A DNA stretch of 64,000 nucleotides from Escherichia phage vB_EcoM_F1: sequence record NC_054912.1; one strand, given 5' to 3'. Below are positions 57,562-60,439 of the stretch, one piece after another. Each line of letters begins with the position of its first letter. Position 1 is the stretch's first letter. A program made the translations under genes and the position numbers. Below the pieces are notes generated by a model, which saw only the letters and a program-made list of their open reading frames with translations, made no database searches and had not been told where the DNA came from.

Positions 57562-57609
57562 CAGGGATTGTCAATTCGCAGAGTAAAATATTAGGAGCAA
57601 TATAACAAT

Positions 57610-57640
57610 GGGGACCTTTCGGTCCCCATATTTTTATTTA
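57610..57640. terminator. bidirectional terminator hairpin (ggggacc-tttc-ggtcccc) after gene 54
   Basis: hairpin 57610-57627 followed by ATATTTTTATTT; convergent gene ends. Confidence 0.65.
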
Positions 57641-57924
57641 CGGAATGAAATGAAAGCAGAAACTGAAGCAACTAAACTGTCTTCAATATAAACTTCAATT
57701 TTTACCGGAGCTTCTGACTCAAATTTACCTGTTACTACACCCTGAAAAATACTTTCAGTCTGTTCTGGCTTTGAAAAATTTTCAGAAGGAAAAATTCCAA
57801 ACTTTTTATCTGTTCCGAAAATTTTGATAAATTCATCATAAACTGCTTCATTAAAAGCATTATCAGCAGGAATAACGCCTTCAACTACAAGTTCTTGACC
57901 TAAAAAGCGTAAAGAAGATTTCAT
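57634..57924 (-). CDS. hypothetical protein downstream of alt
   Basis: 96 aa ORF, ATG start. Confidence 0.55.
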   Translation of the reverse strand: MKSSLRFLGQELVVEGVIPADNAFNEAVYDEFIKIFGTDKKFGIFPSENFSKPEQTESIFQGVVTGKFESEAPVKIEVYIEDSLVASVSAFISFRK

Positions 57925-57956
57925 TTTGTGTTCCTCATGTTATGTCAGTAAGACTA

Positions 57957-58336
57957 CTATAACACAACACGAGGGACTTGTAAACTACATTTTGAACTTT
58001 TTAGTACGCGTAATAGGCATGCGTCGATTTTATACTGTTTCATTGTTTGAAGAGCAGTATCAAAAACAGCATTAATGACACCAATTGGATTTCCACCCAA
58101 CTTAACTAATGATAGTTTCTCATTAACACCTATCATTACGATATGCATCATTTTGTCGCCTGGTTTAACGTTTTATTTGTATCACCGCCAGAGGTGTATG
58201 TACAAAATCTAAATCCAGGAAGCACGCTTTCTTCGCCGGCTTGAATAGCAAAAATTTGTGGTATTTTATGCTTAGGATTTAAGTTAACAACCGGCGCCGA
58301 AGCGCCGTCAAATAATTATGTAATAAGTTCCATGAT
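57957..58336 (-). pseudogene. degenerate tandem copy of the alt 5' region (premature stop and frame disruption)
   Basis: nucleotide alignment to 60000-60388; reads ATG GAA CTT ATT ACA TAA against alt ATG ATG GAA CTA ATT ACA GAA; the 64 aa track ORF aligns to alt residues about 55-115. Confidence 0.7.
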
Positions 58337-60388
58337 TTATCCTTGAACGAACTTGTAAGGCATGTTTGCAATATCTATGCAAGACGCAATAATTCCAAGA
58401 GATGATTCTACTTTCTGTTTAACATTTGATGAAACAAATGATGCAAAGTCAACTCTGTCTTCTATATCACCTGTCATTGTAACCAATTCACCAGTTTCCA
58501 TTAAATGGTCTCCGTCATAGATTACCGATTCGGTGAGTTCTTCTGTGGTCATAACTTCAGCTTGAATAAGCTTGTTGTTAGTTCTAACTGTTCCATCGTT
58601 GTAAGATGCATCAGTTATTTTATTAACTTTGACCATTAATCCACGTGGCAAAATGACTTCCATTTCATTTGAAGGCGCTAAACTTCCACCGGGTAAAACA
58701 ACATTGACCTTATCAGCCCCAGTAATAACCCATCCAATTCCAACTAAATTATCGCTAGAATTTACTAGTCCTTCATCAGTTTTATCAATAGAAACGCTTA
58801 GACGCTTTTCGTCTGGTAAAACACCTATAGATGAATCAGTCATCCAAGTACCAAAAATATTTGGATATAATGATGTTGACACAAAGTTTCTAAAATAAAA
58901 AACTCGATTTTTTACCATTGCTTCATATATTGAAGGTAACATTCGTTGTGAACGATACAAAGTAATACCTTTTGGTAATCGTTCACCATTTTTAAAGGCT
59001 GAATCTAAATTATCAATGGCTTGTTCTATTTCAGATGCTGTTAAAATACTTGTACGCTCATCTGGATTATATAATCCCAAAAGAGCATTATTCATGTCTA
59101 CATATCCTGAACCTACATATTCACGAATTCCGCGTTTTTGCGCTGGTGTGTATTTAGATGAATCTTTATTTTCGACTATAGGATGTAATGACCATCCAGC
59201 GGTAAGAGCATATCCACGTAATTCTCTTCGAATAATCTTTGTTTTTATTGCATTCCAAGAATTTTGTACTAACTCATTTGCAGCATCTTGGTTTAAATGC
59301 GAATGTCTGTTAATATTTCTTTCAAACCAAGCACCTTTATATTTTTCTAAAGTATCATCGACGATAGAAGCAATAGTTTCTAAAGTTTTTATTGAAGTAA
59401 TAGATTCTTTTCGTAATTTTTCTAAAGCTTTATTTTTTATTTCTGCATTAATAATGGATTCTTTATCTTCAGGAATTATAGAAGCTTCTCTGAATGTCAT
59501 TCCAGCTGTAACACTGCTAAGAGCATTCTCTAGTGCAAATCCTGAAGTAGAAATAACAGTTAATTCATTAGCATCAGAAATTAAAGGAGCGTCAGCAGGT
59601 TTATTTAATTCTGCTGCTGAAGCCTCAAATTTTTGAAACATCGGCGTTTCAAATCTAGAAGATTCCAACGACTGACTTTGTGCAATTGCTCTACGTGAAA
59701 TTTTAACTTTAACGATTACAGCTTGGTCAGAACGTTTATCATTTTCTTGTGCAATAGATGCTGCAATTGCCTCATTTTTAGTTACTTGAGCTCCAGTATC
59801 TTTATTGATATAAACATCACCGACCTTCGATTCAACTTTAGTAAAGAGCTCGGTACTAATTTCCGGAACTCCTGGAATGTCTTCTAGTGATACATTTTTG
59901 CGATGTATAAGAATATATGCATACTTTTTATCATAATCCCAGAGTTCCTTAAGAAGGACGTATCTGCCACCTGAACGACTACGGATAAGTCTATCAGCAA
60001 TAACTTGAATTTGTCGAGCTTGGCCAGCAGTTTTAGACTTAAGAATACGAAGCATACAAGCATCAATTTTATACTGACGCATTGTTTGCATTGCAACAGT
60101 AAAAACCGAATTGATATAATTAATTGGGCTTGGACCAAGACCTTTCAATTTAGCAATTGAACCTTTAGCAGTTAATGTAAAAGGAACAATATGCATCATT
60201 TTATCGCCCATCTTTAAATCGCGATTAGTATCACCTCCAGATGTATAGGTACATAAACGAAAGCCTGGTTGTTCAATTGCATCATCAACATGAACTGAAA
60301 AAATTTGCGGTATTTTCTTCTTTGGATTTAAGTTTGTAATTGGAAGAGTAGTATCTTCGTCAAATAATTCTGTAATTAGTTCCATCAT
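58337..60388 (-). CDS. alt: Alt ADP-ribosyltransferase (head-packaged)
   Basis: 683 aa, begins MMELITELFDEDTTLPI; late promoter upstream; T4 size and order. Confidence 0.9.
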   Translation of the reverse strand: MMELITELFDEDTTLPITNLNPKKKIPQIFSVHVDDAIEQPGFRLCTYTSGGDTNRDLKMGDKMMHIVPFTLTAKGSIAKLKGLGPSPINYINSVFTVAMQTMRQYKIDACMLRILKSKTAGQARQIQVIADRLIRSRSGGRYVLLKELWDYDKKYAYILIHRKNVSLEDIPGVPEISTELFTKVESKVGDVYINKDTGAQVTKNEAIAASIAQENDKRSDQAVIVKVKISRRAIAQSQSLESSRFETPMFQKFEASAAELNKPADAPLISDANELTVISTSGFALENALSSVTAGMTFREASIIPEDKESIINAEIKNKALEKLRKESITSIKTLETIASIVDDTLEKYKGAWFERNINRHSHLNQDAANELVQNSWNAIKTKIIRRELRGYALTAGWSLHPIVENKDSSKYTPAQKRGIREYVGSGYVDMNNALLGLYNPDERTSILTASEIEQAIDNLDSAFKNGERLPKGITLYRSQRMLPSIYEAMVKNRVFYFRNFVSTSLYPNIFGTWMTDSSIGVLPDEKRLSVSIDKTDEGLVNSSDNLVGIGWVITGADKVNVVLPGGSLAPSNEMEVILPRGLMVKVNKITDASYNDGTVRTNNKLIQAEVMTTEELTESVIYDGDHLMETGELVTMTGDIEDRVDFASFVSSNVKQKVESSLGIIASCIDIANMPYKFVQG

Positions 60389-60408
60389 ATCCTCTCTAGT
60401 GTTTATTC

Positions 60409-60416
60409 TATTTATA
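60409..60416 (-). promoter_or_regulatory. late promoter TATAAATA for alt
   Basis: minus-strand TATAAATA, then GAGAGGAT and the ATG at 60388. Confidence 0.6.
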
Positions 60417-60421
60417 AAATT

Positions 60422-60439
60422 AAAGGCCCGAAGGCCTTT
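60422..60439 (-). terminator. terminator hairpin aaaggcc-cgaa-ggccttt after the alt.1-like ORF
   Basis: inverted repeat followed by T-rich sequence on minus strand. Confidence 0.5.

Follow-up and report, generated by a model that had tools for sequence, protein, structure and literature searches.

What is the degenerate, alt-like segment that lies directly behind the alt gene of Escherichia phage vB_EcoM_F1, and which event produced it? The segment is located in the window, by which we mean the whole stretch of 64,000 nucleotides analysed here (sequence record NC_054912.1). A first-pass annotation, made from the letters alone, described it as a degenerate tandem copy of the 5′ end of alt. We consider it highly probable that the segment is instead a unitary pseudogene, namely the stump left by another alt-like gene, which was full-length and was once located in tandem after alt.

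Gene organization of the alt locus

The region is 100% identical to the corresponding region of Escherichia phage vB_EcoM_FN, a Tequatrovirus, and 97% identical to that of T4. The genes on the minus strand are arranged in the order 30 (ligase), alt.1, alt (58337–60388), the segment in question and an ORF of 96 aa (57634–57924). Genes 54, 48 and 29 are located on the plus strand and converge on the minus-strand alt cluster. The two intact genes that enclose the segment are the following.

58337..60388, minus strand: alt, encoding the head-packaged ADP-ribosyltransferase; ORF of 683 aa from the first ATG, annotated start at the second ATG (60385)
57634..57924, minus strand: alt.-3 (DUF5498, 96 aa), intact; PF17602, E 5e-64; outside the duplication

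In profile searches the alt product matches Pfam PF03496 with an E value of 3e-34 and PHROG 802 with an E value of 3.7e-263. The PF03496 catalytic domain corresponds to Alt residues 375–615. The window alt is 97% identical to T4 alt, and in T4 as well as in the source record the alt CDS is annotated from the second ATG, with a length of 2049 bp. Comparison with the alt gene of phage RB27 gave a less uniform picture along the gene. Identity is 96% over the first ~880 nt and ~79% over the last ~1.2 kb, and no nucleotide match to RB27 alt was detectable for the central part of the window gene (59158–59571, minus strand). Because the centre has no RB27 match and the two ends differ in identity in this way, the working alt gene itself appears to be mosaic among Tequatroviruses.

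One idea considered was that alt.-3 might be the distal end of an alt copy that had been deleted in part. This was rejected: the best E value of BLASTP of the alt.-3 product against Alt was 0.058, and the protein belongs to the separate family DUF5498. Mutants of T4 with a C-terminal extension of Alt.-3 have been reported to escape the CmdTAC defence by blocking CmdA degradation (Vassallo et al. 2024, PMC11618068).

Homology of the segment to alt and its counterpart in T4

Local alignment of positions 57940–58345 with positions 59950–60400 (both minus strand) gave 231 identical columns out of 344 (67%). The alignment score of 112 is far above the values obtained with 200 shuffles (20.2 ± 2.2, maximum 29), which confirms the homology to the alt 5′ end that had been claimed for this segment. 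The homologous part covers 58333..57996 on the minus strand and is thus shorter than the 380–390 bp initially assigned to it. The similarity ends at ~57996, equivalent to ~348 bp in the undeleted paralogue described below, and the last ~40 bp of the interval noted at first (57995–57957) consist of the 3′ tail and stop codon of the lost paralogue, followed by intergenic and promoter sequence. The loss of a start methionine, also ascribed to the segment, turned out to be an artefact of ORF calling: alt is annotated from its second ATG, and both copies begin with MELIT.

The first-pass annotation had suggested a comparison with the small ORFs downstream of T4 alt. This comparison identified the segment as the counterpart of the annotated T4 pair alt.-1/alt.-2 (NP_049810 and NP_049809; PHROG 23015 and 15247), which had gone unrecognised. 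Like the T4 pair, the segment is located between alt and alt.-3, directly 3′ of the former and 5′ of the latter on the same strand, and the gene order is that of T4 and of the source record. The nucleotide identity between the window stump and alt.-1/alt.-2 is ~97%, and the deletion junction and a −1 frameshift are common to both. The identity to T4 is 97.2% over 2.86 kb, and a four-way alignment of stump alleles has a mean column identity of 98%. The T4 proteins match the Alt family profile PHROG 802 in consecutive portions: Alt.-1 covers positions 2–60 (E 3.7e-18) and Alt.-2 positions 64–120 (E 8.2e-20). No match to PF03496 was found in either of them in a Pfam profile search.

Both T4 ORFs are open (61 and 67 aa), whereas in the window alt.-1 is closed by a TAA at codon 6, and the counterpart of alt.-2 has 64 aa instead of 67 as the result of a 9-bp in-frame deletion. 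The window locus is orthologous to T4 alt.-1/alt.-2 and further decayed. The following ORF is what is left of the pair.

57957..58151, minus strand: residual ORF of 64 aa, counterpart of T4 alt.-2; annotated as "hypothetical protein" in the source record; T4 alt.-2 matches PHROG 15247

The core of the homology has been on record for about two decades. The T4 RefSeq record traces alt.-1 and alt.-2 jointly to an old duplication of the initial portion of alt that acquired a stop codon, and Nolan et al. 2006 (PMC1524935) count the pair among the paralogous duplicates of neighbouring genes. No description of a deletion origin was found in the literature searched on Alt paralogues, the coverage of which is incomplete. 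The reading of the segment as a deletion remnant is a small refinement of this earlier knowledge.

A complete second alt gene in related phages

In phage RB27, 3 nt separate alt (697 aa) from a second Alt-like gene (685 aa), behind which alt.-3 is located. The second gene encodes an Alt-like ADP-ribosyltransferase (YP_009102398; named "alt.-2" in the RB27 record) and is flanked by alt and alt.-3 exactly as the window stump is. The RB27 gene is full-length, whereas the stump has lost 1,699 bp from the centre, and with them all of the PF03496 domain, and therefore cannot encode the enzyme. The RB27 product retains the motifs "YRGQ", "FVSTS" and "EAEVILPRG" of an R-S-E ADP-ribosyltransferase. Since these motifs are kept, the full paralogue looks functional, and the ancestor of the stump would have been a working gene and not an extended stump.

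Protein identity between the two RB27 paralogues is 41% overall; it rises to ~60% in the first 120 residues and to ~75% in residues 121–240. These values imply that the duplication is old and that it comprised the full length of the gene. Between the stump and the alt gene of the same genome, the N-terminal ~117 codons are homologous, with 67% identity at the DNA level. The window alt is an old paralogue of the stump and not the source of a recent copy.

The distribution of the two forms was assessed with the conceptual peptide joined from T4 alt.-1 and alt.-2. In a tblastn search with this peptide, the close relatives split into two groups. In about 70 records the match extends over all 128 residues, at ≥95% identity. 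About 400 records match residues 1–116 in one piece, at ~92–93% identity, inside an annotated Alt-like ADP-ribosyltransferase gene; the additional match elsewhere in these records is alt itself. The two forms were also counted with nucleotide probes. For the intact left breakpoint, represented by a 111-nt probe, 381 records show full coverage and 89 show coverage of half the probe. The junction of the stump, represented by a 71-nt probe, is fully covered in 88 phage records; for an 801-nt probe that reaches from the alt 3′ end across the stump to alt.-3, the count is 89. The probe counts agree with each other: about 88 records contain the stump and about 381 contain an intact second gene.

More distant T4-like phages, namely AnYang (NC_055782), Bp7 (HQ829472) and SP18 (NC_014595), have two to three separate matches to the Alt N-terminus per genome, and the gene names used in these phages include alt′ and alta. 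Multi-copy alt arrays appear to be widespread beyond Tequatrovirus.

The deletion junction

Two alignments between the window and RB27 define the stump at both of its ends. Positions 58336–57996 of the window align to RB27 L005:5001–5348, which are the first 348 nt of the second gene. Positions 58004–57600 align to RB27 L005:7039–7443 at 97.5% identity, and this match comprises the last 20 nt of the gene, the intergenic region and alt.-3. The features at the junction are the following.

57996..58333, minus strand: 5′ stump of the second alt paralogue (alt.-1 and most of alt.-2), equivalent to nt 1–348 of the RB27 second gene
57996..58004, minus strand: deletion junction, one copy of the 9-bp direct repeat CTAAAAAGT; overlap of the two RB27 matches
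57985..57995, minus strand: last 11 nt of the lost paralogue, with its original stop codon TAG at 57987–57985; identical to the RB27 end ...TTCAAAATGTAG; now out of frame

In the intact RB27 paralogue CTAAAAAGT occurs twice, at L005:5340–5348 and at L005:7039–7047, and the two copies are 1,699 bp apart. As the length of 1,699 bp is not divisible by three, the reading of the stump continues past the old TAG to a new stop at 57959–57957, which adds the tail CSLQVPRVVL. When the second gene of RB27 was deleted in silico at the repeat, the resulting translation of 128 aa was the same as that of the stump ORF of phage FL44, and the DNA of the two differed only by 5 synonymous changes. The uninterrupted ORF of FL44 represents the stump in its undecayed state. 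The conceptual peptide of T4 alt.-1 and alt.-2 is ~92–93% identical to the 5′ end of the intact paralogues. As expected of a pseudogene, an intact orthologue is present at the same locus in relatives, and both ends of the gene are kept at a definable junction. With respect to the ADP-ribosyltransferase itself, the N-terminal homology is present in the stump, and the catalytic domain lies in the deleted segment.

We propose the following course of events. An old tandem duplication would have given rise to two complete alt genes. In one T4-like lineage, a deletion of 1,699 bp between the CTAAAAAGT repeats would then have removed codons ~117–682 of the second gene. Replication slippage or microhomology-mediated illegitimate recombination is expected to leave such a pattern, and the deletion probably arose in one of these two ways. 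The first 348 bp and the last 20 bp would thereby have been joined in different reading frames, with the promoter region of alt.-3 left untouched. The stump may subsequently have spread by recombination among Tequatroviruses, gathering disabling mutations on the way. The window stump bears three such later mutations: the TAA at codon 6, a −1 frameshift and a private 9-bp deletion. On the grounds of gene coherence, the event is taken to have been a deletion and not an insertion.

The observation made in the first-pass annotation is thus confirmed, and its interpretation as a footprint of tandem duplication or illegitimate recombination is supported in part. The segment is indeed homologous to the alt 5′ end, degenerate and no longer coding, and illegitimate recombination was involved in its history. 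It is not the product of a duplication limited to the 5′ end, and illegitimate recombination would have made the deletion, not the duplication.

Decay of the stump

The lesions were scored in 16 stump alleles taken from individually sampled, annotated GenBank records, with RB27 as the reference. The GenBank records were sampled in place of IMG/VR, where an exact 26-mer search returned only 3 loci. The following lesions were found.

58316..58318, minus strand: premature stop TAA at codon 6 (E6*); 11/16 alleles; GAA in T4, e11/2, FL44 and RB27
58171..58174, minus strand: −1 frameshift through a 1-base deletion in an A-run (del1@160 relative to RB27); 12/16 alleles
58100..58101, minus strand: site of a 9-bp in-frame deletion; 1/16 alleles, in the window phage only
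Position 278: second −1 frameshift, which truncates alt.-2; 1/16 alleles, in 235Ecol030PP

The premature stop and the break of the reading frame had both been anticipated from the letters, and both are present. The former is the TAA at 58318–58316, at which T4 and e11/2 have GAA, and the latter is the loss of a single base in the A-run at 58174–58171. The frameshift at position 160 splits the stump into alt.-1 and alt.-2 in the manner of T4 and is absent in SG1, FL12, fPS-90 and FL44. The bases lost at 58100..58101 read CTTAAAAAC in T4, e11/2 and SG1 and CTTAGAAAC in RB27; most of the relatives are 9 bp longer than the window phage because of this deletion.

All four possible combinations of the two common lesions are found. 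Neither is present in FL44; the TAA alone is present in SG1, FL12 and fPS-90 and the frameshift alone in T4, e11/2 and T4_ev151, and the window phage combines both. These combinations point to recombination within ~145 bp of the stump or to recurrent mutation. In addition, the annotated alt genes located next to the stumps vary in length (2049, 2088 and 2094 bp). Taken together with the combinations of lesions, this suggests that recombination took place among stump-bearing phages after a single deletion event.

Each allele differs from RB27 by 5–13 synonymous and 0–5 non-synonymous changes. On its face, the mostly synonymous pattern could suggest constraint. The differences are shared among alleles in blocks and look like standing variation inherited from the intact genes, and the counts pool changes from before and after the deletion. 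Since the differences are apparently inherited, the substitution pattern was set aside as a test of constraint and was counted neither way. The disabling mutations, that is E6*, the two different −1 frameshifts and the 9-bp deletion, are unevenly spread over the 16 alleles. Independent lesions in different lineages indicate relaxed constraint, and the stump is most likely non-functional.

Transcription signals around the stump

The following signals were identified around the stump.

60409..60416, minus strand: T4 late-promoter motif TATAAATA, upstream of alt
57956..57984, minus strand: promoter-like site of the sigma-70/T4 early type, (G)TTTACA-17-TATAGT; 10/12 consensus positions, extended TG
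57608..57629, either strand: bidirectional terminator hairpin between alt.-3 and gene 54; −18.3 kcal/mol, z −4.2

A late promoter inside the stump was ruled out, as the only TATAAATA between 57500 and 60700 is the one upstream of alt. The early-type site is located before alt.-3, just after the old stop codon of the paralogue, and overlaps the end of the residual alt.-2 ORF. In phage Lutter, a promoter is annotated at the position equivalent to 57956–57984. The site is likely to act as the promoter of alt.-3 and would have been spared by the deletion. The hairpin at 57608–57629 is the first strong terminator downstream of alt, and terminators are annotated there in phage e11/2. The terminator scan revealed no convincing terminator between alt and this hairpin. 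The arrangement of these signals suggests that the stump is passively transcribed on late read-through RNA from alt and that alt.-3 keeps its own promoter.

Another hairpin, AAAGGCC-UUCG-GGCCUUU, is located at 60422–60439 (minus strand) between alt.1 and the late promoter of alt. Terminators are annotated at the equivalent position in e11/2, and the simple terminator scan did not report this hairpin.

Alternative explanations

It might be argued that the stump encodes functional small proteins, either Alt.-2 or an N-terminal-domain protein of 128 aa as in FL44, which would compete with Alt or assist it in prohead targeting. The N-termini of T4 head-packaged proteins carry targeting and cleavage signals. 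The stump begins with MELITELFD, the N-terminus common to both Alt paralogues, its ORF of 64 aa persists with an ATG start, and the ORF of 128 aa is uninterrupted in FL44. Among the 12 sampled alleles with the frameshift, 11 still have an open alt.-2 reading frame. Against such a function stand the disabling lesions described above, which differ between lineages: E6* in 11/16 alleles, the frameshift in 12/16, the truncation in 235Ecol030PP and the 9-bp deletion. No strong Shine-Dalgarno sequence was seen by eye before the ATG of alt.-2, and the only profiles matched are the PHROGs of the stump itself and the Alt family. Furthermore, the full-length gene occupies the place of the stump in ~381 relatives, and phage ECML-134 has neither the stump nor a separate second gene. 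We regard a function of this kind as improbable.

A more specific proposal is that the stump has been retained, in about a fifth of the Tequatrovirus genomes with second-alt sequence, for one of two uses. An N-terminal-domain-only product (the FL44-type ORF of 128 aa or the T4-type Alt.-2) could modulate the loading of Alt into the prohead, or the diverged alt 5′ sequence of the stump, ~340 bp in length, could serve as a gene-conversion donor that diversifies the targeting end of alt. This is very unlikely in our view.

The origin proposed in the earlier descriptions, a partial tandem duplication in which only the first ~350–390 bp of alt were copied downstream and then decayed, would account for what is visible in this genome, where the stump is homologous to the alt 5′ end only. 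It also agrees with the wording of the T4 RefSeq record and with the treatment of alt.-1/alt.-2 as paralogous duplications of alt by Nolan et al. 2006 (PMC1524935). However, the stump is ~92–93% identical at the protein level to the 5′ end of a complete second gene present at this locus in ~381 genomes and only ~60% identical (67% at the DNA level) to the adjacent alt. Its 3′ end consists of the last 20 nt of that paralogue, the stop codon and the downstream intergenic region, and the junction falls on a 9-bp repeat that is found at both sites in the intact gene. A partial duplication is thus highly unlikely, and the stump is better regarded as the remnant of a complete gene.

That the segment persists as an RNA element, with the hairpin CGGCGC-UUCG-GCGCCG (58307–58292) serving as a terminator or 3′ stabiliser of alt mRNA, can hardly be credited: the 6-bp G+C stem with its UUCG tetraloop is present in the minimum-free-energy and centroid folds and is invariant in four aligned stump alleles, but the same sequence is located inside the coding region of the intact paralogues (RB27 encodes DGASAP there, and an exact-match pattern search recovered RB27-like loci), and the fold has a z-score of only −1.4. 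As an intrinsic terminator the hairpin was ruled out, being coding in the intact paralogues, not followed by a U-tract and not called by the terminator scan.

Structural states of the tandem alt array

In addition to the two-gene form of RB27 and the stump of the window, a further form is present in ECML-134 (NC_025449, L007:5001–7061). In this phage alt is a single-copy gene, the stump is absent, and the flanking genes are those of the window. Its alt gene is chimeric: the first ~450 nt are 97–100% identical to RB27 alt, and from ~nt 500 onwards the sequence is 93–100% identical to the second alt gene of RB27. This implies that the chimera was probably formed by an unequal homologous crossover between the tandem paralogues at ~nt 450–500. 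The crossover would have left ECML-134 with one intact hybrid gene, whereas the microhomology deletion would have left the window phage with a dead stump. At least three structural states of the tandem alt array can thus be distinguished by sequence comparison: two genes, one gene with a stump, and one chimeric gene.

In records such as OP870145, PQ615101, LR597660 and NC_054936, ORFs of the stump are annotated as "ADP-ribosyltransferase" or "NAD(+)--arginine ADP-ribosyltransferase". The catalytic domain is lacking in the stump, and these labels are an annotation error that propagates by similarity. A pseudogene annotation would suit the pair alt.-1/alt.-2 better than two entries called "hypothetical protein" or the name "ADP-ribosyltransferase".

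To the earlier description of the pair, the present analysis adds the origin by deletion from a complete paralogue, the exact junction, the record counts (~88 versus ~381) and the lineage-specific lesions. Beyond a tidier annotation, the significance of these additions is small. They mean that T4 is without an injected effector paralogue that is encoded by most of its close relatives, and caution is advisable when the biology of Alt is generalised from T4 to therapeutic T4-like phages.
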